From an uncultured Chloroflexia bacterium (GTDB lineage Bacteria; Chloroflexota; Limnocylindria; Limnocylindrales; CSP1-4): a stretch of 64,000 nt of DNA. The stretch is from contig CAWEMV010000002.1 of NCBI GenBank assembly GCA_963810285.1, forward strand, positions 1,053,177-1,117,176. The letters are read 5' to 3'. Below, piece by piece: positions 10,182 through 64,000 of the stretch. Within the stretch, counting starts at the first letter, position 1. Every line of letters starts with the position of its first letter. Under the pieces are notes generated by a model, which ran no database searches, was not told where the DNA came from, and was given only the letters and a program-made list of their open reading frames with translations. The position numbers and the translations under genes were made by a program.

Positions 10182-10239
10182 GCGATGGCACAACGGGCCA
10201 CGCGCCCGCGCGTATCACGAAGTCGCGGGGCGATCGCGT

Positions 10240-23437: not shown

Positions 23438-26422
<2,985 letters not shown>

Positions 26423-46377: not shown

Positions 46378-46593
46378 TCCGAGCCGGTTGGGGCAGAATC
46401 AACGATACGTGGCACTCCGGTCGGGTGACGGTCGGCGTCTGCCCAGGTCAGACGGGTCCGCGCTCGGGCCGCGCCACGTCCAGCGAGGATCAGCCCCATC
46501 GAACCGGTCACGCGCACGTCGTACAGCTCCTGGCATCGCACGGTCGATCGTCGAGAGCTGCTGAAACTTGGCGCAGCCGCTACCGCCGGCGCC

Positions 46594-47895
46594 GTGCTTG
46601 CGCCACTGGTCGCCGCCTGTGGCGCGCCCAGCGGCAGCGTGGCGCCGATCGATGCGAACTCCCCGGCGCTGAACGGGCCGATCACCGTGCTCACCGGGGG
46701 CGGCGATCCGACGGTCGAACCTGTCCTCAAGAAGGTCTACGACGACTTCAAGGCGCAGAACCCCGGGGTCGAGTGGGACATCCGCGCGCTCCCGGGTGGT
46801 GGGCCGGAGTGGGATCGACTCGCGCGTGCCGCATTGGCCGCGGGCGAGCCTGTGGGTCTCGTCGTGATCAACGGTCAACAGCTTCGCGGCTGGGTGCGGG
46901 ACGGCCTCCTCGCCGACCTCGGGTCCGACCCGCGGCTGGCAACGGTGCTCGCACGGATCCCGGAACAGTTCCACTTCGGCGGGTCCGGGGAGGACACGAC
47001 GAGAGCCATTCCGCTGGCCATCACGAAGGGCATCGATACGACGGGGATGTTCTACAACAAGGCCCTGCTGGACCGTGCCTCGCTCGCGCCTCCCAAGTCG
47101 ATCGCGGACCTCAAGGCGATGGTCGAGCCCCTTGCGGCGTTCGGTGTCGCCCCGCTCGTCCACTGCTCTGGGGACGTCTTCTTCAACCAGATCCTGGTCA
47201 CCTGGCTGCTGCCGATGATCGCCGAACGCGCGGGCGACCCCGTCGCATTCGCCGAGAGGACGGTCCGCGGCGAGGTCGGCTACGACAGCCCCGAGTGGCT
47301 CGAGACCTTTCAGACGATCGCCGATCTGCGGATCTCGGGCGTCCTGCTCGAAGGGTCCGGCGCAACGGACTACCTGGCCATGCAGCAGCTCCTGCTGCAG
47401 GGGAAGGCTGCGATGACCTTCAACGGGACGTGGCTGCTTCCGCTCCTGCGGCAAGGTTCCCCATCGGTGGAGTTCGATCTGCATGTCGTGCCGCCGCCAC
47501 TCGTCGATGGTGCGACCACGCCCCGGCCGATCCTCGCATGGGGCGGGCTCGCGATGCCCGCCACATCGACGGCGAACCGTGAGGGCGTGTACGCGTTCAT
47601 GGAGTATGCGAGTCGAGCAGACGTCGACAGGTCCATCGTCGCGGGTCTGCAGGTCTACTCGCCCATCCCTGACTCGAACATCGAGATCGAGGACGAGATC
47701 GCCCAGGAGTTCCTGCCCATGTTCGCGAACGCCATCACGTCGCTCGACTGGCTGTGGGAACCGGAGATCACCGCCGAGATCGACCGTCAGGTCCAGGCGC
47801 TCGTGAAGGGCGACACCGACGCTCGGACGGCCGCAGCGGCCGTCGAGGCTGTCGCACAGGAACTCCGTTCTTCAGGCCGTAGCTACTACTCCTGA
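46594..47895 (+). CDS. ABC transporter substrate-binding lipoprotein (family 1 sugar-binding); true start probably upstream near 46498
   Basis: The ORF-track start (GTG 46594) leaves only MLAPLVAAC before the lipobox Cys. The same frame upstream encodes DRRELLKLGAAATAGAVLAPLVAACG, a Tat motif plus lipobox, with no ATG/GTG/TTG. See finding. Confidence 0.85.
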   Translation: MLAPLVAACGAPSGSVAPIDANSPALNGPITVLTGGGDPTVEPVLKKVYDDFKAQNPGVEWDIRALPGGGPEWDRLARAALAAGEPVGLVVINGQQLRGWVRDGLLADLGSDPRLATVLARIPEQFHFGGSGEDTTRAIPLAITKGIDTTGMFYNKALLDRASLAPPKSIADLKAMVEPLAAFGVAPLVHCSGDVFFNQILVTWLLPMIAERAGDPVAFAERTVRGEVGYDSPEWLETFQTIADLRISGVLLEGSGATDYLAMQQLLLQGKAAMTFNGTWLLPLLRQGSPSVEFDLHVVPPPLVDGATTPRPILAWGGLAMPATSTANREGVYAFMEYASRADVDRSIVAGLQVYSPIPDSNIEIEDEIAQEFLPMFANAITSLDWLWEPEITAEIDRQVQALVKGDTDARTAAAAVEAVAQELRSSGRSYYS

Positions 47896-47935
47896 GAGGC
47901 CCGGGCGTGCCGACTGACGCAGGCTGGCCGCCCTC

Positions 47936-48475
47936 CTACGGCGTCACGTCGAGCTCGCCCACCAGCGGCGGCATCGTGCTCGGGTCGATCTCGAACACCA
48001 CCCTGTACCGGCCCGGCTCGGACGCGGGCACCGTCCCGCTGAAGCACGGCACTGCATCCTCGAACGTGACGCTGTCACCGAGATCGGTGAGCTCGGTGCC
48101 ATCGCGCTCGATGCTTACGGTCACGGTGGCGCCGGCCGGCAGCTCTGGCTCGAACGCAGCCACGAAACGGATGGTCTCGCCGACCGTGAACGAGTCGGCG
48201 ACGTTCGCGAGCTCGCATTCGGATCCGCCGGTGCCGAACCCGAGGGACTGGGTGCTCGCGCCAGCGTTCGACTGGCTGAACAGGTACATCGCGCCCAGAC
48301 TCGTCGCGATCAGGAGCACGGGCACGAGCAGCAGGCACCCGACCAACACGAACCGACGCCGCGGGTGGTCGGGACCGGGCGTCGCCCAGCCGGATGCAGG
48401 GGTCGGTGGCGCGCTGTCAGGGGCGTCCGGCGGAGTCGATCCGCCCGGAGGCGTCGCGCCTCCATCGGTCGTCAC
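47936..48475 (-). CDS. hypothetical membrane-anchored protein
   Basis: 179 aa: a Pro-rich N-terminus, one TM helix (FVLVGCLLLVPVLLIATSLGAMYLF), then a ~110-aa extracytoplasmic domain. Confidence 0.45.
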   Translation of the reverse strand: MTTDGGATPPGGSTPPDAPDSAPPTPASGWATPGPDHPRRRFVLVGCLLLVPVLLIATSLGAMYLFSQSNAGASTQSLGFGTGGSECELANVADSFTVGETIRFVAAFEPELPAGATVTVSIERDGTELTDLGDSVTFEDAVPCFSGTVPASEPGRYRVVFEIDPSTMPPLVGELDVTP

Positions 48476-48546
48476 GGGGCCAGTCTAGGCCCCATGTTGG
48501 CGGCCCAGGCGTGCTAGCCTCCGGCGCACCCGCCCCGAGGGACGCG

Positions 48547-48948
48547 ATGCAGGTCTTCCGCCCGGATGACGTCGATCTGGCCACCGCCCCCGCCGACCCC
48601 GCATTCGCGGGCCCGACGGGCAGCGACGCGCCGATGACCCGCTCGGCCGCGAGCATCCAATCCACCGATGGCGGCTTCCGCACGGGCGTCTGGGAGAGCG
48701 GACCGGGCACCACCGACTACACGCACCCGACCGACGAGTGGGCCTACATCCTCGAGGGCGAGGCCAGCGTGACCGCCGCCGGCCGCACCCACGAGCTGCG
48801 GCCCGGGGACGTGTTCTTCACGCCGGCCGGTGAGCGGATGACGTGGGTCGTCCCCACCCACATCCGAAAGGTCTGGGTGCACCGCCGTACGCCGCTCCCC
48901 GGGCGCCTCCGACGCAAGCTCGCGAAGGTCCTCGGCCGAACGACGTAG
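48547..48948 (+). CDS. cupin domain protein (Cupin_3/DUF861-like)
   Basis: ATG 48547 follows GAGGGA. GVWESGPGTTDYTHPTDEWAYILEGEASVT...RPGDVFFTPAGERMTWVV is the typical pattern. Confidence 0.68.
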   Translation: MQVFRPDDVDLATAPADPAFAGPTGSDAPMTRSAASIQSTDGGFRTGVWESGPGTTDYTHPTDEWAYILEGEASVTAAGRTHELRPGDVFFTPAGERMTWVVPTHIRKVWVHRRTPLPGRLRRKLAKVLGRTT

Positions 48949-49050
48949 GGCTGCCCGCTCGTCGGGTATCTTGGGGCGGCCACCCAGCCGTCGTTCTGGC
49001 ACGGACCCGCGCCAGTCCTGCGCACCACCCCCGTCATCCGGGAAGGAGCC

Positions 49051-50868
49051 ATGGACCACGAGCCCGTCTTCATCACGACCCTCGCGATCGGCCTGACCGC
49101 CGCGTTCATCGGCGGGTTCGTGGCGCGCCGGATCGGGCTGCCGGCGATCGTCGGCTACATCCTGGCCGGCGTCGTGATCGGCCCGTTCACGCCGGGGCTG
49201 ATCGCCGACGCCGCGATCGCGACGGAGCTGGCCGAGCTCGGCGTGATCCTGCTGATGTTCGGCGTGGGCATCCACTTCTCGTTCCGCGACCTGCTGGCGG
49301 TCCGCTCCATCGCCATCCCGGGGGCGATCGTCCAGACCGTCGTCTCCGTCGCCCTGGGCATGTGGCTCGGTGCCGCACTCGGGTGGGATCCTGGTGGCGG
49401 ACTGGTCCTCGGGCTGGCCGTGTCCATCGCCAGCACCGTCGTCGTGCTCCGGGCGCTGGACGATCGCGGTGAGCAGGACACGGTCCAGGGCCACATCGCG
49501 ATCGGCTGGCTGATCGTCGAGGATCTGTTGGCCATCGTCGTGCTGGTGCTGCTCCCGACCATCGCGCCCCTGATCGGCGGTGCGGGCGAGACGACAGGCG
49601 CGAATCCGGTCATCGAGATCGCCGTGGCGCTGGGCAAGGCGGCGATCTTCGCGATCCTGATGGTCGCGGCCGGGGCCCGGATCGTCCCGTGGCTGATGCT
49701 GGCGGTCGCACGGGAAGGCTCGCGCGAGCTGTTCTCCCTGGCGGTGCTCGCGATCGCGCTCGGGCTGGCCTACATCGCATCGAGCGTGTTCGGCGTGTCG
49801 TTCGCGCTCGGTGCCTTCCTCGCCGGCGCCGTCGTCGGTGAGTCCGACATGAGTCACCAGGCGGCGGCGGATGCCCTCCCGTTCCGGGACGCGTTCGCCG
49901 TCCTGTTCTTCGTGGCGGCCGGGATGCTGATCGACCCCGCCTTCCTCATCGCGAATCCGCTCCCGGTGCTGGCGCTGGTCGCGCTGATCATCGTGGGCAA
50001 GGCCGTCACGAAGCTGGTCGTCATCGGCGTCGCCGGGTATCCCCCGCGGGTGGCGCTGACTGTCGCCGCCGGACTCGCCCAGATCGGCGAGTTCTCGTTC
50101 ATCATCGCCACGCTGGGTCGGACCCTCGGCCTGCTGCCCGAGGATGGGTTCCAGCTGATCGTCGCGGGTGCCCTCGTCTCGATCGCCGTCAACCCCCTGC
50201 TGTTCGCGGCGACCGGGCCGCTCGAGCAGCGCCTGCGCGACAGCCCGCTCGTGCTGGCCCTGCAGCGGCGGCGCATCGGCGAGCTCGCAACGCTCGAGGA
50301 GGCAGCGACGACCTCGCTCGTCAACCACGCCGTGATCTGCGGGTACGGACGGGTCGGCCGTCTCATCGGGCCGGCGCTCGCGCGACGCGGCTTCCGGTAC
50401 GTGGTCATCACCCAGCAGCGCGACGAGGTCGACCGCCTCCGGTCCGAGGGTGTCACCGCGATCTATGGCGACGCCGCGAACACGGAGGTGCTCGAGATGG
50501 TCGCCGTTGCTCACGCCCGCGTGGTCGTCGTCGCGACACCGGAGCCGAACGAGACGCGCCTCATCGTCGAGCGCGTGCGCGCGCTGGCCCCGAACATCGA
50601 CCTCGTGGTCCGGACCCACAGCGACGTGGAGGCCGCGCGGCTGCGCTCGCTCGCCGGGAAGGTCCAGGCCGTCCACGGCGAACGTGAGCTTGCCGTACAG
50701 ATGGCGCGGTATGCCCTCCGGCGCTTCGGCCTCAGCGCCGCCGAGGCGGAAGCGATCGCCCAGGGTCTCCGCGGCCGGGGCGTGGTCGTCGCGGAATCGC
50801 CGTCACGGGGGGTCTCGTATCGGATCGGCCGAGCGTGGACCCGGATCCGCGGCCGGGAGGAGGGCTAG
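49051..50868 (+). CDS. CPA2-family cation:proton antiporter with C-terminal RCK/TrkA-N domain (YbaL/Kef-like)
   Basis: 605 aa with ~12 TM helices (LGLPAIVGYILAGVVIGP...). The C-terminal Rossmann region is HAVICGYGRVGRLIG. Confidence 0.88.
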   Translation: MDHEPVFITTLAIGLTAAFIGGFVARRIGLPAIVGYILAGVVIGPFTPGLIADAAIATELAELGVILLMFGVGIHFSFRDLLAVRSIAIPGAIVQTVVSVALGMWLGAALGWDPGGGLVLGLAVSIASTVVVLRALDDRGEQDTVQGHIAIGWLIVEDLLAIVVLVLLPTIAPLIGGAGETTGANPVIEIAVALGKAAIFAILMVAAGARIVPWLMLAVAREGSRELFSLAVLAIALGLAYIASSVFGVSFALGAFLAGAVVGESDMSHQAAADALPFRDAFAVLFFVAAGMLIDPAFLIANPLPVLALVALIIVGKAVTKLVVIGVAGYPPRVALTVAAGLAQIGEFSFIIATLGRTLGLLPEDGFQLIVAGALVSIAVNPLLFAATGPLEQRLRDSPLVLALQRRRIGELATLEEAATTSLVNHAVICGYGRVGRLIGPALARRGFRYVVITQQRDEVDRLRSEGVTAIYGDAANTEVLEMVAVAHARVVVVATPEPNETRLIVERVRALAPNIDLVVRTHSDVEAARLRSLAGKVQAVHGERELAVQMARYALRRFGLSAAEAEAIAQGLRGRGVVVAESPSRGVSYRIGRAWTRIRGREEG

Positions 50869-50875
50869 GGCTGCC

Positions 50876-52723
50876 TCAGCGGCCGATCAGCGTGATGCCG
50901 GTGATCCGTGCGTAGTTCGAGAACCACGTGTCGCGGTGGACGACCTTCCCGCTGCGCTCGCGCACGGTCCGGGTCACCGAGACCTGGAAGCCGTTGACGG
51001 GGTACTCGATCCGCTTCGACGACCCGGCCGGCATGCTCGAGGTGTACTGGACCGAGTCGGTGCCGTACCGGAAGTTCCGCTTCGGCCCGGTCGCGAACGA
51101 GACCCGGCGCCCGTTCGGGACGCTGAAGATCTCGAACTTCACGTAGCCGCTGCCGCCGCTGCGCCAGCCCATGCCACGGATGAGGAGCGGGTAGTCGGTG
51201 TCGTTGGTGAACGACATCGTCTGCTTGGAGCCGCCGGCGCTGATGAACACCGTCGCGTCGAGCCCCACCGGGTAGCGGTCGATGTAGTAGTAGTGGTTGC
51301 GCCGGGCGCCCATCTCGTAGCCCGCCCGGGCCGCGGCGTTGAACAGCGTCGTCGAGCAGGAGCAGATGCCGCCGGCCAGGGCGCCCTGCGGCTCGGTGCG
51401 ACCGTTGATGATCGCGCCGCCCGAGCGATAGCCCTTGGATCGGGTGACGGGCCCGACCGCGTCCCAGAAGTCGAACTTGGCGCCCGGGGCGACGACGTAG
51501 CCGTTGATCAGTCGGGCGGGGATCCAGATGTTGGCCCCGAAGCCGTTCTTCTCGCTGATCGGGAAGTACGTCGTCCACTGCGAGATCTTGCGCATCTTCG
51601 GGCGGGCGGCCTTCGCCTCGGCGGTCGTGAGCGCCGGCTCGAGCACCTTGAGCGACGGCTCGAGCGTGGCGGCGGCGGCGCCGCCGACCCGCGCGTCGAG
51701 CAGGTCCTGGACCTGCTTGCGGGTCGCCTTTTGGTCGAGCTTGAAGCCCGTGCGGCTCGCGGTCACGCCGGTGATGCGGCCGTTGGCCGATGTGTACGAC
51801 GCGTTGACCGGCGAGCGGTCCACGTTCCTGGCGATGGTCTTGAGGACCGTCGGGAGGCCCGCCGTGTCGAGGCTGACGCCGTACCCGCCATCGGCGGTCG
51901 GCGCGAAGCTCAGCCAGGAGCGCAGGCGCGAGCCGGTGATCTTCTGGTCGTTGTCCTTGACCGCGATCGCGATCGGCGCGCTGATGCGATCGGCGTCCTC
52001 CTTGGCGGTCGTCGCCTCGTCGGTCGTGATCGTCGGCGTCATGAACCGCAGCGGCATCTCATACGTGAGCTCGGCCGGTGCGTCGAGCGTGCCGAGCTCG
52101 GCCAGAGCGGCCTCGACCGCCGGGGCCGGCTCTGCCAGGCGGCCCTCGACCGCCGGCACCACCGTGAACGCCTGGTCGACCTGCGAGACGAACGAGTCAC
52201 GTGGCTCGCGCGCGAGCGAGTCGGCGAACCCGAGCGCGCGCTGGGCGAGCGCGTCGGCGTCGAACGTGATCTTCGGTGTCAGGCTCACGCCGCGGAGCGC
52301 GGTCCGCGCGTCGGCCACGAACCGATCGACGACGTTGCCTTCCCGCCCGATCCCCATCGCCTCGGCGACCATCGCCTCGACATCCGGGCCGCGGCCGATC
52401 TCGGCGAACGTGACGGTCTGCGCGTGCTCGCGGGCGCGGAACGTCACGGATCCCTCGCCGAGGTAGCCGTAGGTGGCGCGGATGGCCGCGGCGGCGGCGG
52501 CGGGGGCCTGGCCGGACAGGTCGAGCGAGCCGATCGAGACGCCCGGCAGGATGCGGCCGGCGTACTGGCTGTCGTAGGCGACCGCCGCGCCGACGCCGAT
52601 CGCGGTCGCCGCGATGAGGCCGATGAGGAACGCCACGGTGAACCGGAAACGCAGCGACGGCCGGCGCGCCGCGGGCACGTCGGGCGTCTGGAGAGCGACG
52701 GTCTCTGGGGTGGTCGTGGTCAT
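50876..52723 (-). CDS. VanW family protein
   Basis: N-terminal TM anchor and repeated PG-binding-like modules. The C-terminal VanW core is GGGICSCSTTLFNAAARAGYEMGARRNHYYYIDRYPVGLDATV. ATG 52723 chosen. Confidence 0.8.
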   Translation of the reverse strand: MTTTTPETVALQTPDVPAARRPSLRFRFTVAFLIGLIAATAIGVGAAVAYDSQYAGRILPGVSIGSLDLSGQAPAAAAAAIRATYGYLGEGSVTFRAREHAQTVTFAEIGRGPDVEAMVAEAMGIGREGNVVDRFVADARTALRGVSLTPKITFDADALAQRALGFADSLAREPRDSFVSQVDQAFTVVPAVEGRLAEPAPAVEAALAELGTLDAPAELTYEMPLRFMTPTITTDEATTAKEDADRISAPIAIAVKDNDQKITGSRLRSWLSFAPTADGGYGVSLDTAGLPTVLKTIARNVDRSPVNASYTSANGRITGVTASRTGFKLDQKATRKQVQDLLDARVGGAAAATLEPSLKVLEPALTTAEAKAARPKMRKISQWTTYFPISEKNGFGANIWIPARLINGYVVAPGAKFDFWDAVGPVTRSKGYRSGGAIINGRTEPQGALAGGICSCSTTLFNAAARAGYEMGARRNHYYYIDRYPVGLDATVFISAGGSKQTMSFTNDTDYPLLIRGMGWRSGGSGYVKFEIFSVPNGRRVSFATGPKRNFRYGTDSVQYTSSMPAGSSKRIEYPVNGFQVSVTRTVRERSGKVVHRDTWFSNYARITGITLIGR

Positions 52724-52816
52724 CGGGTGCGCAATCCTATCAGCCGGAAGCAAGCATCCCCTGTGCTCCGGGCTCCCTCATGGACGCGTGCCTGCGTCCG
52801 GTCGTGACGCGGAGCG

Positions 52817-53785
52817 TCAGCCGCCGCGTGGCACGAGCACGACCCGGCGGTTCGGCTCCTCGCCGATCGACTGGGTCGCGACGCCCTCGTGGTCGCGCAG
52901 GGTCAGGTGGATCCAGCGCCGCTCGAGCGCGGGCATCGGCTCGAGCTGGAGCATCTTGCCGGTCTCCATGACCCGCGCCGCGGCCCGATCGGCGAGCTCC
53001 CGGAGCTGGCGCTCGCGGCGGCCCCGGTAGTCCTCGACATCGACGAGCACGCGCGTCCACGAGCCCATCTCCTTCGACAGCATCAGGTTCACGAGGTGCT
53101 GCAGGGCAGACAGTCGCTCACCCTTGCGCCCGATGAGGGCGCCGAGCGCATCGCGATCGTCGCCCTGGGCGACGACGTTGAGCCGGCTGGTCTCGCCGGC
53201 GGCGACCTCGACCTTGGCGTCGAAGCCGAGGTGGCCCATCAGGGTCTCGAGGATGCGCTGGCCGGCGGCGAGCGCCTCGGGCGACGCCTCGGAGGCCTCG
53301 AGGTCGGCGCGTTCCGCCGCGAGCGAGCCACGGGCGGCAGCCACCTCGGCCGCCTCGGACGCCGACACGTCTGCTCCGCCGCGCTGCGGGCCACGCTGCC
53401 CGCCGCCATCGCGCGGACGGTCGTCTCGTCGGCCCCGGCTCCGGTCGTCGCGCCGCGGTGGGCGGTCGCCGTACTCGCGGGGCGGTCGGTCGTCACGACG
53501 CGGCGGGCGGTCGTCCTGGCGCGGTGGGCGGTCGCTGTAGTCGCGGGGTGGTGCGGCCGGCATCGGCTGGGACGCCGCAGCGTCACGCTTGGGGGCGGTC
53601 CCGCCGAGCGCCGACCGCGGGGCGGCCACGATCCTGGCGGGCTCGGCACCCATGCCCAGGACGCCGCGGCTGCCCGGGGTGAGGATCTCGAAGTCGAGGT
53701 CGTTGAGCTCGGCCCCGAACTCGTCGCGGGCCGCCTTGAGCGCCTCCTCGACGGTCTTGCCGGTGAATTCCTTGTACGCACTCAT
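52817..53785 (-). CDS. jag: Jag/KhpB RNA-binding protein (Jag_N + KH + R3H)
   Basis: ORF 52817..54778 trimmed to ATG 53785 (MSAYKEFTGKTVEEALKAARDEFG). The R3H region is LEPMPALERRWIHLTL. A long Arg/Asp/Pro repeat forms the linker. Confidence 0.85.
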   Translation of the reverse strand: MSAYKEFTGKTVEEALKAARDEFGAELNDLDFEILTPGSRGVLGMGAEPARIVAAPRSALGGTAPKRDAAASQPMPAAPPRDYSDRPPRQDDRPPRRDDRPPREYGDRPPRRDDRSRGRRDDRPRDGGGQRGPQRGGADVSASEAAEVAAARGSLAAERADLEASEASPEALAAGQRILETLMGHLGFDAKVEVAAGETSRLNVVAQGDDRDALGALIGRKGERLSALQHLVNLMLSKEMGSWTRVLVDVEDYRGRRERQLRELADRAAARVMETGKMLQLEPMPALERRWIHLTLRDHEGVATQSIGEEPNRRVVLVPRGG

Positions 53786-53787
53786 GG

Positions 53788-54954
53788 TCAGCGTCGTCTC
53801 CCTCGTCGGCCCTGACGACCGCGCTCGCGCTTGCGGATCGTCTTGTCGGCCGTCTTCTTCTTCTCCGCGTCGGTGAGGATCGCGGCACGCTTGCTGGGCT
53901 CGGGTGGTGGTGGCATGGCGACCGGGAAGCGGGGCGTGTGGTCGACCGCGAACGCCGGCGTCCAGCCGAAGATCGGGAACATCGAGCCCCAGCCCACGAT
54001 CAGGTACTGCTGCACGATCGAGAAGATCGTCGCCACGATCCAATAGATGAACAGCCCGGCCGGCAGGAACCCGCCGTACACGACCGAGATGATCGGCAGG
54101 AAGAGCATCATCTGCCGCTGGACCCGGACGTTCGGGTCGTCGTTGGTGGGGTCGGCCGCCGGGAGCATCATCCGCGACTGGACGAGCTGGAGCAGGGCGG
54201 ACAGGATCGCCAGGATGCTGATGCCGAAGCCCGCGACGGCGAAGATCGTCGACGGCTGGCTGACGTCGATGGACGTCCCGAGGAAGGGGATGACCGTGTC
54301 GATGCACGGTCCGAGCGCGGCGTTCGGCATGCCCGTGGCCGGGTCGACGTTGGTGCACGTCAGTGGGACGACCTGGACACCGGCAACGGTCAGCATGGCC
54401 GTGGGGTCGACGTTCGTCAGCCCGTTCTGGATGACCGAGTACATGATGAACAGCAGCGGCAGCTGCAGCAGCAGCGGCAGGCAGCCGGCCAGGACGTTGA
54501 CGCCCCGCTCGCGCATGAGCTCCTGCTGGGCCATGCGGATCTTCATCGCGTCGCCCTTGAACCGCTTCTTGATCTCGTTCAGCTCGGGCTGAAGGAGCTG
54601 CATGCGTCGCTGCGAGACCAGCTGCTTGCGGTAGAGGGGGATGAGGACCGCTCGGACGACGAGCGTCAGCACGACGATCGCCCAGGCGATGGCCGCCGGG
54701 AACCCGACGGTGTAGAGGAACTCGTAGACCGCGACCATGATGATGAACATCGCCTGGAAGATCGGCGTGAAGAGCCACGCCAACAGGCTGATCGGATCCG
54801 CGCCGGGGGACGCCGGCGCCAGCGGCGGCGCTGCCGGCGTGGGCGATGCGCCGGGGGCGCCCGGCACGCCGGGGACGCAGGCGATCACGACCGGGATGAT
54901 CGCGAAGAGCAGGAGCCCGGGCAGCATGCGCCGCAGGGCGGGCGAGAGCGTCAC
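53788..54954 (-). CDS. yidC: membrane protein insertase YidC
   Basis: 388 aa with RAVLIPLYRKQLVSQRRMQLLQPELNEIKKRFKGD, the LAGCLPLLLQLPLLF core and a basic C-terminal tail. Confidence 0.92.
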   Translation of the reverse strand: MTLSPALRRMLPGLLLFAIIPVVIACVPGVPGAPGASPTPAAPPLAPASPGADPISLLAWLFTPIFQAMFIIMVAVYEFLYTVGFPAAIAWAIVVLTLVVRAVLIPLYRKQLVSQRRMQLLQPELNEIKKRFKGDAMKIRMAQQELMRERGVNVLAGCLPLLLQLPLLFIMYSVIQNGLTNVDPTAMLTVAGVQVVPLTCTNVDPATGMPNAALGPCIDTVIPFLGTSIDVSQPSTIFAVAGFGISILAILSALLQLVQSRMMLPAADPTNDDPNVRVQRQMMLFLPIISVVYGGFLPAGLFIYWIVATIFSIVQQYLIVGWGSMFPIFGWTPAFAVDHTPRFPVAMPPPPEPSKRAAILTDAEKKKTADKTIRKRERGRQGRRGRRR

Positions 54955-54969
54955 CGGCGTCTGCCCTCG

Positions 54970-55176
54970 TCAGCGAACGGGGTCATACCCACCCGGGTTC
55001 CATGGATGACATCGAGCGATCCGCTTGGCGCCCATCCAGCTTCCCTTCAACAGCCCGTACTTGCCGATCGCCTGCTCGGTGTAGTGCGAGCACGTCGGCT
55101 CGAACCGGCAGGATGAGGGGAGCCAGGCGAACACGATCCGGTAGAGCCTGATGAGCCCGATCCCGATCTGTTTCAT
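54970..55176 (-). CDS. yidD: membrane protein insertion efficiency factor YidD
   Basis: 68 aa. [37 protein letters not shown] is canonical. Confidence 0.9.
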
Positions 55177-55523
55177 CGACTGGTCCCTCCGAGCACGCCG
55201 CCCCGGCCAAGCGTCCGGCGCAACGCTCCGACCAGCGCGTCGTGGTCGGCCCTGACGATCGCAGGCCGGGCGATGATGAGGACGTCCCAGCCGGGCTGGA
55301 ACGAGGGCGCCATCACCCTGAGCGCCTCACGAAGTCGGCGGCGGACCCGGTTCCGAGCCACGGCACTTCCGAGTGCCCGGCCGGTCGCGAGGCCGAAGCG
55401 CGTCGTCTCGAGTTCGGTCCGCAGGAATCGCGCGGAGAGCAGGCTGTGGGAGCGCGTCGTTCCCGCCTCCTGGATCGCCGCGAAGTCCTGCGGTCGGGAG
55501 AGCATCACGAGTCGCGGCGTCAC
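55173..55523 (-). CDS. rnpA: ribonuclease P protein component
   Basis: ORF 55173..55913 trimmed to GTG 55523, 18 nt after the rpmH stop. [13 protein letters not shown]...[17 protein letters not shown] is the RnpA RNR motif. Confidence 0.85.
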
Positions 55524-55540
55524 ACGGCCGCGATCGCTGG

Positions 55541-55675
55541 TCAGGCCGTCAGTCGCTTCCGACCCCGAGCCCGCCGAGCGGCAAGGATGCGCCGACCCGC
55601 AGTCGTCTTCATGCGGGCGCGGAAACCGTGCTCCTTGGCGCGGTGGCGCTTCTTGGGCTGATAGGTCTGCTTCAT
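55541..55675 (-). CDS. rpmH: 50S ribosomal protein L34
   Basis: [44 protein letters not shown], 44 aa, canonical. Confidence 0.95.
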
Positions 55676-55795
55676 CCGGACGGTCCTGTGATCCTCTCGA
55701 ATCCGACCTCGGGGACGGTTCGCTCCGTCTACCCCTAGAGGCACGCAGACGCGCCCGGCGCCCCTCGGGGCACGTGGCGCGTCGTCGTCCGGCGG

Positions 55796-55825
55796 ATGAT
55801 ATGGCTTCGTCGGAAGGAGTGTCAA
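55796..55825 (-). promoter_or_regulatory. candidate sigma70-type promoter for the rpmH operon
   Basis: The minus strand reads TTGACA (complement of 55820-55825), an 18-nt spacer, then TATCAT (complement of 55796-55801), ~120 nt upstream of the rpmH ATG. Confidence 0.45.
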
Positions 55826-56162
55826 ACGACGAAGGGGCCGGCCGGACACCTGGTCGCGCCCACGCGCGAGGGGTCTCGCGGGCCCGGCGAGAGCGCCGCC
55901 GTGCCTCCCGCACGGATACCCCTGGGGGGTATGTGCGAATCGCCTTGCGACGCCGTCGAGCCCGGTGCTATCCTCTCCGGGCCCTCGGCGCCGGAGACGT
56001 TCGCGGGAGACGCCAGCAGCCCCGTGAGGTGGCGAAAGCAGCGGTCATCCGGCCTCGTCGGATGGACGTCCGTCGTGACGCTCCGCCGCCCTCGCACCCC
56101 CGGGACCCGTGGCTGTCGCAAGTCATCATCGTGGTCAACCGCACGTAGGTCCGATCGAACGA

Positions 56163-57561
56163 ATGGACGCCAAGCAGGTCTGGCGAGCCGCCCTGGGCGA
56201 ACTCCAGGTCTCGCTGTCGCCCGCCAATTACGAGACGTGGCTGCGCGACACCGAGCTGGTCGACGTCGACGAGCAGCGGTTCCGGATCGCGGTCCCCAAC
56301 GGCTTCGCCAAGGACTGGCTCGAGACCCGCTATCGGTCGCTCATCAGTCAGACCCTCGCGCGCATCGTCGGCTACAGCGTCCAGGTCGAGTTCGTGATCG
56401 GGGCCTCGACCAACGGGACCGAGGCGGCCACCCGCGACGCCGGCGCCCCGGCAGCCGTCCCTGCCGACGCGGCGGCTGGGCCGAGTGGCCAGCAGGTCCG
56501 TGTCGAGGCGACCCGGGTCGGCGGCGATGGTGGGGCGACCAACCTCAACCCGCGCTACACCTTCGCCAACTTCATCGTCGGGTCGGCCAACCGGCTCGGC
56601 CACGCGGCCAGCCTGTCGGTCGCCGAGCGACCCGGCCACGCCTACAACCCGCTGTTCCTGTACGGCGGCGTCGGCCTCGGCAAGACCCACCTGATGCACG
56701 CGATCGGCAACCAGGTCATCGCAAGGTTCCCGCGCAAGCGGGTCGTCTACGCGACGTCCGAGAAGTTCACCAACGAGTTCATCACGAGCATCCAGCAGGG
56801 CAAGATCGACGAGTTCCGGGGACGCTACCGGCGGATCGACCTCCTGCTGATCGACGACATCCAGTTCATCGCCGACAAGGAGCGGACCCAGGAGGAGTTC
56901 TTCCACACGTTCAACGCCATCCACGAGGACGGCAAGCAGATCGTGCTGTCCTCGGACCGGCCGCCGAAGGCGATCCTGACGCTCGAGGAGCGGCTCAGAT
57001 CGCGGTTCGAATGGGGGCTCATCGCCGACCTGACCGCCCCGGACCTCGAGACCCGCATCGCGATCCTGCGCGCGAAGGCCGAGGAGGGGGCGGTGCCGAT
57101 CACCTCGGACGTGGTCGAGTTCATCGCTCGCAAGGTCGTGTCGAACGTGCGCGAGCTCGAGGGCGCGCTCAACCGCATCGTGGCGTTCGCGAGCATGGGC
57201 GCCACACCGATCAGCATCGAGCTCGCCCAGGCCGTCCTGTCGAACGTCCTCTACAACCCGAAGAAGCGGCAGGTCACCCCGGAGCGTATCGCCAAGGCCG
57301 TGTCGGACTACTACAGCGTGCCCGATGGAGGCGCTCCAGGGCCAGAAGCGCGACAAGGCGATCGTCATGCCCCGCCAGATCGCGATGTTCCTCATGCGCG
57401 AGGAGACGGACGTCTCGCTGCTCCGGATCGGGGCGGAGCTCGGCGGGCGCGACCACTCCACCGTCCTGCACGCCTGCGACAAGATCACCCGCGAGGTCGC
57501 CGTCAACGACGAGCTGCGCCGCGAAGTCGCCGCGGTGCGCGAGCTGATCTACGCCGAGTAG
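56163..57561 (+). CDS. dnaA: chromosomal replication initiator DnaA, interrupted by an apparent +1 frameshift at 57324 (56163..57323 joined to 57325..57561)
   Basis: Frame 0 from ATG 56163 carries domain I (MDAKQVWRAALGELQ...) and the AAA+ region (GGVGLGKTHLMHAIG, LLLIDDIQF, sensor motifs). Domain IV (PRQIAMFLMREETDVSLLRIGAELGGRDHSTVLHACDKI) is in the +1 frame, ORF 57325..57561. Confidence 0.9.
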
Positions 57562-57701
57562 GCGGGCGCCCGGGGAGGGCCGGCCGATAAGTGGCCCCGG
57601 CGCGTGGACGAGTGCTGCCGGAACGGCCTGTCGCCGCAGGACCGGCCCCGGTCATCCCCAGTCCATCGACCACCACGTCCCCAGCCGACGACCGCTCGTA
57701 C

Positions 57702-57820
57702 ACGCTGTGGACCCGGGCGTCCACCGCCGTCCGCCGCACGCCCGAGCACGGCCGTCCACCGGGTCCACAGCGTTACTACGGTGATGACGGAGCAAGAAGA
57801 AAGAGGGAAGATACCCACGA
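57702..57820. other. putative oriC core: DnaA-box-like cluster plus purine/AT-enriched tract in the dnaA-dnaN spacer
   Basis: A perfect 15-bp inverted repeat ACGCTGTGGACCCGG (57702-57716) / CCGGGTCCACAGCGT (57759-57773) carries TGTGGAC / GTCCACA cores. Two more GTCCAC cores lie at 57719-57724 and 57754-57759. ATACCCAC and TGCCCAC variants are nearby. The least GC-rich tract is AGCAAGAAGAAAGAGGGAAGATA (57791-57813). Confidence 0.45.
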
Positions 57821-57905
57821 GTCCTCAGACCGGTGGCCCGCAGGTCGTCGCCCCGGTCGTCTCGAGCGGTCCTGGCCAACATCGACTGAGTCGGAGTGTG
57901 CCCAC

Positions 57906-59024
57906 GTGAAGCTATCGGTCATGCAGGAGAACCTGGCGCGCGGGCTGTCCGTCGTCAGCCGCGCCGTCTCGAGCCGGAGCACGCTGCCGGTCCTCGCCAA
58001 CGTCCTCCTGAAGACCGAGGATGCCGGCCTCAAGCTGACGGCCACGAACCTCGAGATCGGGATCACCTACTGGGTCCCGGGCAAGATCGACGAGGACGGC
58101 GCGACCACGGTCCCGGCCAAGCTGCTGACCGACCTCGTCAACTCGCTGCCGCCGGGCGACAAGGTCGAGCTCGAGGTCGCGCCGGGCGACACGCTGCACG
58201 TCAAGGCGGGCCCGTTCCAGACCCACATCAAGGGCATCAGCGACGAGGAGTTCCCCGCCATCCAGACCGCCGGCGAGCGTCCCACGACGCGGATCGCCCA
58301 GAACGTGCTGCGCCGGGCCTTGGCCGAGACGGCCTTCGCCGCCGCCAGCGACGAGGCGCGCCCGATCCTGACCGGCGTGCTCGCCCGCTTCGAGGGCGAC
58401 CAGCTGACGCTCGCCGCCGCCGACAACTACCGGATCGCGGTCAAGACCGTGCCGATCCTCGACCCGGTCCCGGAGACCAGCGTCGTGATCCCGGCCCGTG
58501 CCCTGAACGAGCTCGCCCGGGTCCTGGCTGATGTCGACGACCCGGTCGATGTGGTCCTTGCCGGCGCGCGCAACCAGGTCCTGTTCCATCTCGACGGCAT
58601 CGACCTCGTGAGCCGGCTCATCGACGGCCAGTTCCCCAACTACCAGCAGGTCATGCCCCAGGCCCACGCGACCAGGGCGATCCTCGATCGCGAGGAGCTG
58701 CTGCGCGCCGTTCGGCCGGCCGCGCTCATCGCCCACGAGTCGGCCAACATCGTGAAGCTCCAGATCGGCGGCGACGGGGAGGCCGGGGTCACCGTCAGCG
58801 CCAACGCCGAGGTCGGCGACCACGTCGGGCAGGTCGAGGCCGCGGTCGAGGGTGACGGCACGACCATCGCCTTCAACGCCCGATATCTCGCCGACGTGCT
58901 GACCAACGTGTCCGCCGAACAGTTCGCGCTCGAGCTCAACGGGCCCCTGTCTCCCGGCGTGTTCAAGCCGGTCGGCGACGATCGCTACGTCCACGTCGTG
59001 ATGCCAGTCCGGACGACGTCCTAG
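57906..59024 (+). CDS. dnaN: DNA polymerase III subunit beta (sliding clamp)
   Basis: GTG 57906 ([35 protein letters not shown]...). 372 aa with the typical three-domain length and the FNARYLADVL motif. Confidence 0.93.
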   Translation: MKLSVMQENLARGLSVVSRAVSSRSTLPVLANVLLKTEDAGLKLTATNLEIGITYWVPGKIDEDGATTVPAKLLTDLVNSLPPGDKVELEVAPGDTLHVKAGPFQTHIKGISDEEFPAIQTAGERPTTRIAQNVLRRALAETAFAAASDEARPILTGVLARFEGDQLTLAAADNYRIAVKTVPILDPVPETSVVIPARALNELARVLADVDDPVDVVLAGARNQVLFHLDGIDLVSRLIDGQFPNYQQVMPQAHATRAILDREELLRAVRPAALIAHESANIVKLQIGGDGEAGVTVSANAEVGDHVGQVEAAVEGDGTTIAFNARYLADVLTNVSAEQFALELNGPLSPGVFKPVGDDRYVHVVMPVRTTS

Positions 59025-59025
59025 C

Positions 59026-60174
59026 ATCGCCTCGCTCGATTCGCTCTCGGTCCTCGACCTCCGCGGATACGCAGCGCTCGACGTCGTCTTCGACCCCGGC
59101 GCCCATCTCATCTGGGGCCCCAATGCCGCCGGCAAGACCAGCCTGCTCGAGGCCATCGCGCTGCTCGGGTGGGGCCGCTCGCACCGGACCAGTGCCGACG
59201 GCGAGCTGATCCGCTGGGGCCGGGACCTCGCCCGGGTCGAGGGCCGGGTCGGCGGCGACACGATCGAGGTCGCCGTCCAGCGATCCGGCGCGGACGGGTC
59301 GGGCGGCCGCAAGCGGATCCGCGTGAACGGGGTCGGCCGTCGTGCGAGCGGGCTCGGGCGGCACCTCCGTGTCGTGCTGTTCGCGCCGGAGGAGATGCTG
59401 CTCGTCATCGGCTCGCCGTCGCTCCGTCGGGCCGCGCTGGACGCGCTCGCCGCGGCGCGCGTCCCGACATACGCCGATGACCTCGGCACGTACGGCCGCA
59501 CGCTCCAGCAGCGCAACAGCCTGCTGCGTGCGATCCGCGAGGAACAGGCGAGCCGGGACGAGCTGCGCTTCTGGGACGAGACCTTCCTCGACACCGGCGG
59601 CCGGGTCGTCGAGGCCCGCCTGCGCCTGCTCGAGACCCTGGGCGCGCCGTTGGCGGCTGCCCACCGCGAGATCGCCCCGGATGAGGCGGCCGCCGGGGGC
59701 CTGACGGTCCGCTATGTCACCAACGCCCCGGCGCAGCCCGGTGAGACGCCGCGCGACGCGCTGGCTCGACGCCTGGCCGACACGGCGGAGAAGGAGGTCT
59801 GGAACGGGTCGACGGTCATCGGGCCGCACCGCGACGACGTGGCGTTCGATCTCGGCGGTCGCGACCTGGCCGGCTTCGCCTCGCGCGGCCAGCAGCGGAC
59901 GGCGATCCTGGCGTTCAAGCTCGCCGAGCTCGACCTGCTCACGGAGCTCGATGGTCGACCGCCGCTACTCCTCCTCGACGACGTGTTCAGCGAGCTCGAC
60001 CCCGAGCGGCGGTCGCATCTCGTGCGGCGGATCGCGGCGCTGCCGCAGGCGTTCGTGACGACGACGACGCCGGACGACCTCGATCCGGCGCTGCTCGAGA
60101 TCGCCCACGGCTGGGAGGTGCGGCCCGGCACGGACGGCGCCGAGCTCCGCCCGACCATCGCCGTCGCCCGATGA
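59026..60174 (+). CDS. recF: DNA replication/repair protein RecF (no canonical start codon upstream of Walker A; ATC 59026 proposed)
   Basis: The frame of ORF 59323..60174 is open back to the TGA at 58999. It encodes IASLDSLSVLDLRGYAALDVVFDPGAHLIWGPNAAGKTSLLEAI (RecF N-terminus plus Walker A). Later motifs are the signature-like SRGQQRTAILAFKLAE and Walker B LLLLDDVFSELD. Confidence 0.85.
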   Translation: MASLDSLSVLDLRGYAALDVVFDPGAHLIWGPNAAGKTSLLEAIALLGWGRSHRTSADGELIRWGRDLARVEGRVGGDTIEVAVQRSGADGSGGRKRIRVNGVGRRASGLGRHLRVVLFAPEEMLLVIGSPSLRRAALDALAAARVPTYADDLGTYGRTLQQRNSLLRAIREEQASRDELRFWDETFLDTGGRVVEARLRLLETLGAPLAAAHREIAPDEAAAGGLTVRYVTNAPAQPGETPRDALARRLADTAEKEVWNGSTVIGPHRDDVAFDLGGRDLAGFASRGQQRTAILAFKLAELDLLTELDGRPPLLLLDDVFSELDPERRSHLVRRIAALPQAFVTTTTPDDLDPALLEIAHGWEVRPGTDGAELRPTIAVAR

Positions 60175-60503
60175 CGACCCCGCGTCGTCGCCCGATGCGA
60201 CGGATCGGCGACCTCATCCCCGATGCCGCACGCGCGCTCGGCCTCGAGGACGAGCTGCGCCTTGCCCGTGCGATGGCGACGTTCGAGGCGATCGTCGCCG
60301 AGCGGGTCCCGGCAGCGGCGGGGGCCTGCCGTGTGGTCCGACTGGAGGGGTTCGCGATCGACGTCGAGGCCGACGCGCCGATCGTCGCGCAGGAGCTGCG
60401 GCTGCGCTCGAGCGAGCTGCTGGGGGCCTTCGCGGCGGCCCCCGGGGGCGTCGGGATCCGCGATCTGCGCGTCCACGTCCGTTCCGGAGGACCCCGCGTA
60501 TAA
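60171..60503 (+). CDS. DUF721 domain-containing protein (DciA-like)
   Basis: 110 aa with an ATGA overlap with the recF stop. This is the conserved post-recF position of DUF721 genes in high-GC Gram-positives. Confidence 0.7.
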   Translation: MTTPRRRPMRRIGDLIPDAARALGLEDELRLARAMATFEAIVAERVPAAAGACRVVRLEGFAIDVEADAPIVAQELRLRSSELLGAFAAAPGGVGIRDLRVHVRSGGPRV

Positions 60504-60566
60504 TCCACCGGGCCTGCCAGCCAATACGGGACGATCCGTCGCCGACCCGGGCCATGGTTCGTCCCC

Positions 60567-62837
60567 ATGTCCGACCAACCCTATCGAGAGGCCCGGATGG
60601 CCGCCCGACTCCAATTGAAGCTTGGGATCGTCGCCGAGCACGACCGGCTCGACGACTCGCCTGACACCCTCGTCGTCGTCGAGCCGAGCGTGGGCTCGGT
60701 CGCCCGTTCCAAGGGCAACCTGTACCTGCTGGTCACCTCGCGGACGAGCTCGCGCCACGCCCTGGAGGCGACCCGGCTCGCCGCCGAGACGATCCGCAAC
60801 GAGTACTACTACGACGAGTCGGCCGGCATCCGCGTCTGCCTCCAGAAGGCGATCGCGACGGCCAACAAGCGGCTGCTCCACCAGGCTGACCGCCTCGGCC
60901 TGCGCGCGACCGACGCCAACGGGCCCATCGGCGTCGGCGTCGGGGTGGTGCGCGGCAACGAGATGTACGTCGCGACCGTGGGACCGGCGGAGGCCTACCT
61001 CATCCGCCAGGCGCGCCTCTCGACGCTGCCGGATCCCCACCGCGAGCGCGGGCTGCCCACGAGCGACCTCGAGCCCGAGGTGTGGCGAGGCGAGGTGACG
61101 GTCGGTGACTCGCTGGTCCTGATCTCGCCCAACATCGTGGCCCGGCTCGGCGCGGACGAGCTCAAGGACGCGATGGTCACGCTCCACCCGCAGTCGGCGA
61201 TGGAGCACCTCCACCAGCGCTTCCGGGCGGCCGACGGCGCCGGCAGCGACGGGGCCATCGCGTTCGAGGCCACCGAGGTGGCCCCGACGACCCGTGGCCG
61301 CTCGCTCGTGCCGGTCCGGCCAGCCGAACCGCTGGCCGGGGCCCCCGACCGATCGCCGATCCCCCTGGCGGACAACGTCCAGGCCGCGGGCGTCGCGATG
61401 ACCGCCGCAGCCGAGGGCGCCCGCGTCGCGGCGGGCACCGCGTTCGAGCGGGTGGTCGGGCGCATGCACGACCTGATGCCCCAGCGCAAGCCCGCCTACC
61501 GGCGGGTGACGCCGCTCGCCTCGCGCCGCGAGACCCAGCGCCGCGCCGCGATGGCCCTCATCGCGCTGCTGGTCGTCGTCGGCAGCCTGGCGATGTCGGT
61601 CTGGGCGTTCGGCGGCCAGCGCCAGCTCGGCGCCATCAGCTCGGTCAACGCCGGCCAGGACGCGCTCGCCAAGGCGCGCGCGAACATCGAGCTCGTCGAC
61701 GGACCGGGCATCGACCTGATCGAGGACGACCGCGAGGAAGCCGTCAAGCTCCTGACCGAGGCGTACGACCAGCTCGACGTCGCCGAGGAGGCGAACATCA
61801 GCCAGCGCGTCGTCGCTCCCGTGCGGGAGGACGTGGAGGGGCTGCTCGACCGCGCGTACGGCGTCGTGGAGGTCGCCTCGACGCCGCTCTACCGGTTCAA
61901 GCCGAAAAAGGGTGCGGACCCGATCGACCTGCGCACGGTCGTCCGCGGCTACGACCAGGCCCCGTACGTCATCGACCGATCGACGCGGTCGGTCTACCGG
62001 GTCGACCTCAAGCGCAAGCGCGCGACCGTCATCGCCCGGATCGGCCGGAACGTGGGCAACACGAAGCAGGCGACCCCGGCCTTCCTGGCGGTCGGCGGCC
62101 GCGACCTGCTGATCCTCGACGCCAAGAACCAGCTGTGGCGCTGGCGGGCCTCGAACGATGCCGGGCGGGGCACGACCAACCGGGTCACGGTGAACGGGGC
62201 GAGCCAGTGGGGCGACGACATCCTGGCCATGGGCACGTACGTCCGGAACCCCAGCCAGAACCTCTACAACCTGTACGTGGTCGACCCGTCCGAGCAGCAG
62301 ATCCGGGCGTATCCGCCGGCCAGCGACGGCGGCGGCTTCCCGGCCAAGTCGTCGGCGTGGCTGGCGACCGCCCGCGACGTCGCCAAGATGTCGTCGCTGT
62401 ACATCGACGGCGACATCTACATCACGGAGAACGGCGTGCTCGACCGCTACACGTCGGGCAAGAGCGACGGCTGGGATGTCGGGGCGCCTGGCGACGAGCT
62501 CCTCCGCCCGACATCGGCCGCCCAGATCGTTGCCGGGTCGGGCGGTCGCAACGACGGTCGGATCTACACGTACGACAAGCCCAACGCGCGAATCCTCGCC
62601 TACGACAAGCGGTCGGGCGACTTCGCCGGGCAATACCGCCTGGCCGAGGGCGACGGCTGGAAGGACCTCCGGGCGATGTATGTCATCCCCGGCGTGGAGG
62701 ACGCCCCGGACACGCTGATCTGGCTGTCGAACGACACGGTGCACCAGACCGTGCTGCAGGCCGTGCCCGAGCCGGACCCCTCGGCATCGCCCTCACCCGG
62801 CGCGAGCGCGCGCCCGTCGACCACGCCGAGCCCCTAG
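60567..62837 (+). CDS. membrane protein with N-terminal degenerate PP2C-like domain, one TM helix and a large repeat-containing (propeller-like) extracytoplasmic domain
   Basis: 756 aa. The N-terminal ~230 aa follow the PPM fold order with key Asp motifs replaced (see finding). The TM helix is AAMALIALLVVVGSLAMSVWAF. The C-terminal region has recurring hydrophobic-Y-x-x-D blade-like repeats and a Pro/Ser tail. Confidence 0.6.
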   Translation: MSDQPYREARMAARLQLKLGIVAEHDRLDDSPDTLVVVEPSVGSVARSKGNLYLLVTSRTSSRHALEATRLAAETIRNEYYYDESAGIRVCLQKAIATANKRLLHQADRLGLRATDANGPIGVGVGVVRGNEMYVATVGPAEAYLIRQARLSTLPDPHRERGLPTSDLEPEVWRGEVTVGDSLVLISPNIVARLGADELKDAMVTLHPQSAMEHLHQRFRAADGAGSDGAIAFEATEVAPTTRGRSLVPVRPAEPLAGAPDRSPIPLADNVQAAGVAMTAAAEGARVAAGTAFERVVGRMHDLMPQRKPAYRRVTPLASRRETQRRAAMALIALLVVVGSLAMSVWAFGGQRQLGAISSVNAGQDALAKARANIELVDGPGIDLIEDDREEAVKLLTEAYDQLDVAEEANISQRVVAPVREDVEGLLDRAYGVVEVASTPLYRFKPKKGADPIDLRTVVRGYDQAPYVIDRSTRSVYRVDLKRKRATVIARIGRNVGNTKQATPAFLAVGGRDLLILDAKNQLWRWRASNDAGRGTTNRVTVNGASQWGDDILAMGTYVRNPSQNLYNLYVVDPSEQQIRAYPPASDGGGFPAKSSAWLATARDVAKMSSLYIDGDIYITENGVLDRYTSGKSDGWDVGAPGDELLRPTSAAQIVAGSGGRNDGRIYTYDKPNARILAYDKRSGDFAGQYRLAEGDGWKDLRAMYVIPGVEDAPDTLIWLSNDTVHQTVLQAVPEPDPSASPSPGASARPSTTPSP

Positions 62838-62852
62838 CCGGGGCGGCCGGGC

Positions 62853-63575
62853 GTGATCCCGCTCCGCGACGCCAATCCGACCCGGCGCACGCCGGTCGTG
62901 ACGCTGGCCCTCATCGCGGCGTGCTCGATCGTCTTCGCCTACCAGCTCGTCCTCGCGACCCAGCGCGGGGACGCGTCGCTCGACGCGTTCGTGACCCGCT
63001 GGGCGGTGGTCCCGGCCGAGCTCGTCGCGGCCCTCTCGGCCGGAGCGATCGTCTCGCCCGAGACGCTCACGCTGGTGTCGAGCCAGTTCCTGCACGGCGG
63101 GTTCTTCCACATCGCCGGCAACCTGCTGTTCCTGTGGATCTTCGGGAACAACATCGAGGACCGCTTCGGCCGCGTGCCGTTCCTGGCCTTCTACCTTGCC
63201 GGTGGGGTTGTCGCGGGGCTGACCCAGGTGGCCATCGACCCGGACTCGAGCATCCCGGTCATCGGTGCATCGGGCGCCATCGCGGCGACGCTCGGGGCAT
63301 ACCTCGTGCTGTTCCCGCGTGCCCGCGTCACGACCGTCATCTTCCTCGTGTTCTTCTATCAGCTGATCGACCTGCCGGCGGTCTTCGTGCTGGCGTTCTG
63401 GTTCCTGCTCCAGCTCGTCGACGGCCTGGGATCGCTCGGCATGACCGCCGCGGCCGGCTCGGGCGGGGTCGCCTTCTTCGCCCATATCGGCGGTTTCGTG
63501 TTCGGGGCGGTGGTCGGCTGGCTCGTCAGGCTCACGGGTGCCGGCTGGCGTCCCGTCGGGCGCACCGTGGGATAA
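62853..63575 (+). CDS. rhomboid family intramembrane serine protease
   Basis: 240 aa with HGGFFHIAGNLLFLWIFG, the catalytic GASGA (VIGASGAIAATLG) and His in FFAHIGGFVFG. Confidence 0.85.
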   Translation: MIPLRDANPTRRTPVVTLALIAACSIVFAYQLVLATQRGDASLDAFVTRWAVVPAELVAALSAGAIVSPETLTLVSSQFLHGGFFHIAGNLLFLWIFGNNIEDRFGRVPFLAFYLAGGVVAGLTQVAIDPDSSIPVIGASGAIAATLGAYLVLFPRARVTTVIFLVFFYQLIDLPAVFVLAFWFLLQLVDGLGSLGMTAAAGSGGVAFFAHIGGFVFGAVVGWLVRLTGAGWRPVGRTVG

Positions 63576-63583
63576 TCCGGCGC

Positions 63584-64000
63584 ATGGACGACGGGTTGGT
63601 CGAGATGGTCGTCGAGAGCGTCCGCGTCCACATGCTCTCCAGCCGGCACGTGGTGATCCTCAAGGAGACCGGGCGGGAACGCTATCTGCCCATCTGGATC
63701 GGCCCGTGGGAGGCAAGCGCCATCGCGATGCGCCTCCAGGGCCTGACACCTGAGCGGCCACTGACCCACGACCTGTTCGCGAGCACGCTCGAGGCCGTCG
63801 ACGCGCGCGTCGCGCGGGTCATCATCTCGGATCTCGCCGAGGAGACGTTCCACGCGCGCCTGTTCGTGGAGCGCGACGGCCGGGTCGGCGAGATCGACGC
63901 GCGACCGTCCGACGCGCTGGCCCTGGCGGTCCGTGTCGGTGCCCCGATCTTCGCCGTGCCATCGGTGCTCGACCAGGCCGGGCTCGGCGCCGACGGCGGT
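63584..64000 (+). CDS. bifunctional nuclease (BFN/DUF151) family protein, 5' part (runs off window end)
   Basis: My own translation from ATG 63584 gives MDDGLVEMVVESVRVHMLSSRHVVILKETGRERYLPIWIGPWEASAIAMRLQGLTPERPLTHDLF...DARPSDALALAVRVGAPIF, the typical DUF151 pattern. It has no stop in the window, so it is absent from the ORF track. Confidence 0.72.
   Translation, partial: MDDGLVEMVVESVRVHMLSSRHVVILKETGRERYLPIWIGPWEASAIAMRLQGLTPERPLTHDLFASTLEAVDARVARVIISDLAEETFHARLFVERDGRVGEIDARPSDALALAVRVGAPIFAVPSVLDQAGLGADGG

Follow-up and report, generated by a model that had tools for sequence, protein, structure and literature searches.

The split of the dnaA gene found in the window (the whole 64,000-nucleotide stretch of DNA that was analysed) is, with high probability, a single-base insertion error of the long-read assembly consensus. 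The true sequence almost certainly reads GTG CCG ATG, which would give an ordinary intact 465-aa DnaA encoded next to dnaN. This explanation is based on nearest relatives that do not carry the extra base, on sister assemblies full of gene-breaking one-base indels and on the selection apparent on domain IV. A local consensus error had also been put first by an initial annotation of the sequence, and the comparison agrees with it, as 12 of the 12 relatives with the gene in frame, including a contig 99.66% identical to the window, have one base fewer.

The 5' part of dnaA (56163..57323, plus strand) was found by translation to run in frame 0 from ATG 56163 to ...AKAVSDYYSVP, with Pro387 encoded by CCC at 57321-57323, and comprises domain I (DnaA_N), the linker and the AAA+ domain III, extending 15 residues into the domain IV model. 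The letters at 57300-57340 are ...GACTACTACAGCGTGCCCGATGGAGGCGCTC..., and the GC3 frame plot changes phase at about 57316. Past Pro387, the out-of-frame continuation of frame 0 (57324..57590, plus strand) consists of 88 nonsense codons rich in Arg, Pro and Gly, ends at the stop 57588-57590 and represents no real coding sequence; translation and Pfam thus confirmed what had been annotated for this frame. In the 475-aa frame-0 product, Pfam identified DnaA_N (PF11638) at residues 5-65 (E = 3e-15) and the Bac_DnaA AAA+ domain (PF00308) at residues 128-288 (profile positions 1-161 of 162, E from ~1e-73 to 3e-73), and the translation includes the Walker A-bearing GGVGLGKTH; domain IV was absent from this product in the same Pfam analysis. 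The 3' part (57325..57561, plus strand; 78 codons and a stop) lies in the +1 frame, where ATG 57325 opens the peptide MEALQGQKRDKAIVMPRQIAMF...ELIYAE, whose start is also given as MEALQGQKRDKAIVMPRQIAMFLMREETDVS...ELIYAE, with the stop at 57559-57561, and it supplies the remaining, DNA-binding helix-turn-helix portion of domain IV. This 78-aa ORF matched Bac_DnaA_C (PF08299) at profile positions 17-69 with an E value of 8e-22, as expected from the initial annotation, and the match is no chance resemblance. Deletion of one base yields a 465-aa DnaA in which PF08299 extends gap-free over the junction (profile positions 1-69 of 69, 93 bits vs 77.5 before), so the proposed continuity on skipping a single base was also borne out. 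The break does not lie exactly at the AAA+/domain IV boundary, as had been stated; it follows residue 387, and since the PF08299 model spans fused residues 373-441, it falls 15 residues inside the model.

The gene belongs to the canonical locus, with rpmH, rnpA, yidD, yidC and jag upstream and dnaN downstream, according to the gene tables of three loci collinear with the window (L001, L002 and L093), rpmH being visible in the window itself as well; it is the rpmH-rnpA-yidD-yidC-jag | dnaA-dnaN copy. The ATG directly past the shift point opens a complete 78-codon ORF, as would be needed if domains I-III and domain IV were made as two cooperating polypeptides, the second starting from ATG 57325. 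Such a split DnaA is nevertheless exceedingly improbable, since this ATG encodes Met388, which is conserved in the intact DnaA of every close relative, no Shine-Dalgarno sequence was found upstream of it, the 78-codon ORF would cover the domain IV model only from position 17 onwards and, among the relatives, the split arrangement occurs only in error-ridden contigs.

The codons at the site were compared among the related loci. GTG-CCG-ATG is present in frame in L001, L002/L012, L003, L005-L011 and L014, and the synonymous GTC-CCG-ATG in L013, a more distant relative with 92% protein identity. The in-frame CCG is therefore shared by 12 relatives, among them the 99.66%-identical contig and the short-read assemblies L006, L008, L013 and L014. 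Of the loci with GTG-CCG-ATG other than L001, L002/L012 and L003, six are MAGs of the genome collection and L014 is a contig. The CCC form, GTGCCCGATG, was observed only in the window and in L004, and the 26-nt CC form in 8 of 8 matches from the genome collection. As the relatives read GTGCCGATGGAG, with CCG as the native Pro codon, the extra base is a C in a run extended from CC to CCC (GTG-CC[C]-GATG), so that at 57321..57324 (plus strand) the window has CCCG vs CCG in the relatives, one C, or equivalently the G, being supernumerary. The initial annotation had named G 57324 as the extra base and expected relatives to read GTGCCCATGGAG, with one G fewer; the single supernumerary base stands and the repaired protein is the same, but by the relatives the base is a C.

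The best match of the repaired 465-aa protein, for which thousands of full-length DnaA sequences were found, was P0001, with 464 of 465 residues identical. P0001 is encoded on a 628-kb contig (ENA ERZ25039591 contig_17398), to which the loci L001, L093 and L095 belong and which is 99.66% identical to window positions 46165-64000 over 17.8 kb. Identity to the window is 95% for L002/L012, 98.5% for L003 and 94.5% for L004. A protein-guided scan of metagenome contigs returned 80 dnaA loci, all 80 collinear with the query, only four of them being close relatives, and an exact-pattern scan of metagenome contigs for the site gave no match. The 88-aa tail had no match among 5.8 billion cluster representatives, which is a weak test, as frameshifted copies sit within clusters that have intact representatives; the 475-aa frameshifted product of the window (P0121) is itself grouped in the cluster of the intact P0001. 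The window carries the strain-private alleles T at 57287 and A at 57525.

P0121 is already public (NCBI and ENA), from a contig of 3,128,296 bp, and the frameshift thus belongs to the deposited record. Two dnaA fragments from sister samples, 229 aa long in L003 and 290 aa long in L004, fall into the 90% cluster of P0121; their breaks are at positions other than that of the window, and in these two loci yidC, rnpA, dnaN and the VanW and Na/H exchanger genes are broken as well. The sister contigs (accessions ERZ250395xx, with contig_N names) are from the Microflora Danica long-read project; L002 and L012 are one contig, L012 being titled MAG MFD06229.bin.2.150. Judging from its near-identity to these contigs, we infer that the window comes from a Microflora Danica, Nanopore-only MAG. 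The long-read assemblies of that project were produced from Nanopore data only, with Flye and one Medaka round, and residual indel errors are mentioned in the methods (PMC12313526). Many apparent bacterial pseudogenes have been reported to be assembly artefacts (PMC11017572).

The error background was evaluated by comparing 26 kb of the window with contig_17398, with third sequences as referee. At least six coding indel errors were found in contig_17398 where the window is correct, namely two in an SBP gene, two in rplU and one each in an AI-2E transporter gene and an ExoX-like gene. The one-base indels recorded for this contig are at positions 477, 1455 and 11546 of L001, the last of them in the dnaA-dnaN spacer, and at 5112, 6036, 9599 and 9980 of L095. 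The two rplU indels compensate each other and enclose 126 aa of nonsense, and the Illumina contig L096 sides with the window. Within the same 26 kb, the window is faulty only at dnaA. One fault per 26 kb would correspond to about 100 indels in a 3.1-Mb genome, so that it is unremarkable for dnaA to have been struck. The window assembly is cleaner than its sister assemblies but not free of faults. The gyrB, gyrA, mrdA, secA and dnaN genes are intact in the window, as had been reported, and the associated view that the assembly is not indel-ridden is right in comparison with the sister assemblies, but has to be set against a multiply frameshifted permease gene in the window. Three other candidate frameshifts were rejected: the GC3 frame-switch candidates at ~3200 and 40620 (minus strand) are ordinary gene junctions, the first between rplU and rpmA and the second between a membrane protein gene and an overlapping downstream gene, and the stop at 26420-26422, which precedes an ORF in the same frame, is merely the end of secA.

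The permease gene is of the CitMHS/ArsB type (8409-9674, minus strand) and is shattered over at least four different frames, with one in-frame stop; by Pfam, its N-terminal ORF covers profile positions 1-122 of 336 and its C-terminal ORF positions 223-332, and the part between them can be read only with four or more changes of frame. The gene is truly a pseudogene or else belongs to a strain-specific stretch that is poorly resolved. Together with the ORF at 9675-10214 (minus strand), the broken permease gene makes up a 1.8-kb segment (8411-10241) that in the 99%-identical contig_17398 is replaced by ~1.2 kb with a Na+/H+ exchanger gene, and the segment is a strain-variable spot.

The second occurrence of the insertion is in L004, a contig from a different sample with 78 gap positions in 6.9 kb, which has the same CCC as the window and whose dnaA is interrupted at three points. 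A real variant that recurs could, in principle, also account for the insertion in two assemblies. At the polymorphic sites downstream, L004 carries the L001-type alleles and is consequently no sister lineage of the window, so that the identical insertion arose twice, as is expected of a context-dependent consensus error. The shared CCC thus suggests a recurrent error of this kind rather than common descent of the extra base.

Two routes to the error are conceivable. The first would be a context-dependent miscall of the short C-run. In the second, co-occurring strain haplotypes differing at the wobble position of Val386 would have been collapsed, GTG-CCG and GTC-CCG being merged into GTG-CCCG during alignment or polishing. 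At 70%, GTC is the predominant Val codon, and L013 has GTC CCG, L013 being the one relative on which the strain-mixture route rests. Some of the indels in the noisy contigs coincide with synonymous differences of several nucleotides between strains; the ERLRSRF codons of L003, for instance (CTGCGCATCG), resemble a merge of CTG-CGC... and ...AGA-TCG. An origin by one or the other of these routes seems plausible, and either would explain why the same insertion is seen in the unrelated noisy contig L004. Long homopolymers are the classic context of Nanopore errors, and a plain long-homopolymer error was rejected as the whole story since the run is only two to three bases. A basecalling error tied to a methylation motif was considered as a further conceivable cause at this site. 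The shortness of this C-run counts against an assembly error, and so does the accuracy of the rest of the 26 kb, which implies a modest local error rate.

The stretch downstream of the break was also compared with L001. The first 1124 nucleotides of dnaA are identical to L001, and eight differences follow in the last 270 nt, the frameshift being located at the 5' edge of this SNP cluster. This switch from identity to difference relative to the 99.66%-identical relative adjoins the frameshift and may be a recombination or haplotype-switch boundary. Within domain IV, six third-position differences are synonymous and one codon is changed (V447N), with 77 of 78 residues conserved, a pattern that indicates that domain IV is still under purifying selection and has continued to be read in the correct frame while these strains diverged. 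Any real lesion would, given this selection, have to be extremely recent. In addition, dnaA has a single lesion and no relaxed selection downstream of it, and does not present the several lesions of a decaying pseudogene.

These observations bear on the possibility that the population, or its dominant sub-population, truly carries CCCG and makes a DnaA without domain IV, whether through a very recent lesion, in a hitch-hiking or defective lineage, or with another copy of the initiator elsewhere in the genome. The presence of the frameshift in the deposited record (P0121), the accuracy of the window over the rest of the 26 kb compared and the position of the site at the 5' edge of a real SNP cluster, in a stretch that varies between strains, are all compatible with a genuine lesion. 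It was nevertheless considered improbable, as the affected gene is the canonical dnaA-dnaN locus copy, domain IV shows only synonymous drift and one substitution with no second lesion, every in-frame relative is intact and no ribosome-binding site precedes ATG 57325 from which domain IV could be expressed separately. Furthermore, domain IV is needed for binding to DnaA boxes, and almost no free-living bacterium can dispense with dnaA.

The initial annotation had also raised a +1 ribosomal frameshift; be it programmed or tolerated, such a shift would occur by re-pairing of peptidyl-tRNA-Pro from CCC to CCG and restore full-length DnaA from the frameshifted gene, with DYYSVPMEALQGQK as the predicted junction peptide. 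This explanation does not hold up well, the arrangement being unconserved, the stimulators of the prfB type absent and CCC-G an everyday in-frame context, and it was judged very improbable. Non-programmed +1 slippage of tRNA-Pro at CCC-N is kept low in cells by m1G37 and EF-P. The site does belong to a documented +1-prone class: with native UGG tRNA-Pro in vitro, the +1 shift decreased in the order CCC-A > CCC-G > CCC-U > CCC-C, and in cells CCC-C in the position of the second codon shifted at about 1%, compared with less than 0.003% for the average non-programmed shift and 30-100% for programmed prfB (PMC4519876). The presence of CCCG in two assemblies and the 0-frame A-site codon GAT, a minor Asp codon (14% of Asp codons), are further points in its favor, as is the use of +1 frameshifting by this organism at prfB. 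The latter, as had been annotated, has the classical CTT-TGA-C site: in prfB (27472-28603, plus strand), ORF1 starts from GTG 27472, the sequence GGGG-CGC-CTT-TGA-C follows, with CTTTGA at 27529, and the +1 frame continues to the stop at 28603. The autoregulatory frameshift of prfB is known biology.

At dnaA, the sequence upstream of the site (TACTACAGCGTG) has no G-run and no Shine-Dalgarno-like sequence, compared with the GGGG of prfB. The A-site codon GAT is neither a stop nor slow, with 59 uses in 6,692 codons. No RNA structure was detected at 57300-57420 by folding (z = +0.97), and the region had no Rfam match. A count over 11 intact window genes gave 56 in-frame instances of CCC-G, so that CCC-G cannot by itself signal a shift, and the ability of the P-site codon to re-pair from CCC-G to CCG is trivial for the same reason. 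Moreover, the 12 relatives, including the 99.66%-identical neighbor, are in frame, and the sole other carrier, L004, has additional dnaA frameshifts that are incompatible with this kind of rescue. Non-programmed +1 shifts do not exceed ~1%, a figure that applies to the second codon (PMC4519876); such a rate falls far short of what an essential initiator requires. The more specific proposal that CCCG is real in two Limnocylindria-like lineages (the window and L004), which would both obtain full-length DnaA by +1 slippage of tRNA-Pro at CCC-G, has only a very slight probability; if it were true, the supply of the initiator would be tied to the translation fidelity factors TrmD and EF-P.

Other features of the window were recorded during the analysis. 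The dnaA-dnaN spacer contains, at 57700-57775, a perfect 15-nt inverted repeat (ACGCTGTGGACCCGG ... CCGGGTCCACAGCGT) that bears two GTCCACA motifs (high-GC DnaA-box type) in convergent orientation and may belong to oriC; across the window, GTCCACA is not enriched (8 found vs 6.9 expected). The indel at position 11546 of L001 lies within a DnaA-box-like GTCCACA of this spacer. A gene for a 746-aa protein (60588-62834, plus strand) is located downstream of dnaN, of a gene for a 283-aa protein with no Pfam match and of that for DciA; it is conserved in L001, L002 and L093, and its product had no Pfam match in any related locus. A tmRNA gene (39248-39621, plus strand; 119 bits) is placed back to back with a c-di-AMP riboswitch (38985-39115, minus strand; 76 bits), the latter at the 5' end of a minus-strand ORF (37743-38987). 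The ribosomal protein L21 (3177-3902, minus strand) has an Ala/Lys-rich C-terminal extension of ~135 aa, confirmed by the Illumina contig L096.

As biology, the split dnaA is of no import, since there is little doubt that the DnaA of the organism is an ordinary one. It does show how, even in good single-contig MAGs assembled from Nanopore data only, sporadic one-base indels can strike essential genes, which then receive a pseudogene annotation. Since one and the same spurious indel can turn up in independent assemblies, recurrence alone is no proof of a real variant, and when such genomes are scanned for recoding, relatives should be compared before any frameshift is believed.

The dnaA site can be compared with four known systems. 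With the slippage of tRNA-Pro at CCC-N it shares membership of the class studied, to which CCC-G belongs, but the reported shift does not exceed ~1% and peaks at the second codon (PMC4519876), and the dnaA site is codon 387. With prfB (RF2), it shares the requirement for a +1 shift on a re-pairing P-site codon, from CUU to UUU in prfB and from CCC to CCG in dnaA, but it has neither the in-frame stop nor the upstream Shine-Dalgarno-like stimulator nor the conservation of the prfB site. The likeness to the indel pseudogenes of Nanopore-only assemblies (Flye and Medaka) consists of a one-base insertion that neither the nearest relatives nor short-read assemblies carry, of sister assemblies with many indels and of a dnaA that is otherwise perfectly conserved; the differences are the run of only two to three bases and the recurrence of the insertion in L004, which suggests that context or strain mixture, and not random noise, drove the error. 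Finally, the canonical DnaA has the same DnaA_N, Bac_DnaA AAA+ and Bac_DnaA_C domains and the same gene neighborhood as the repaired window protein, and the deposited gene of the window differs from it by the +1 frame change after codon 387.
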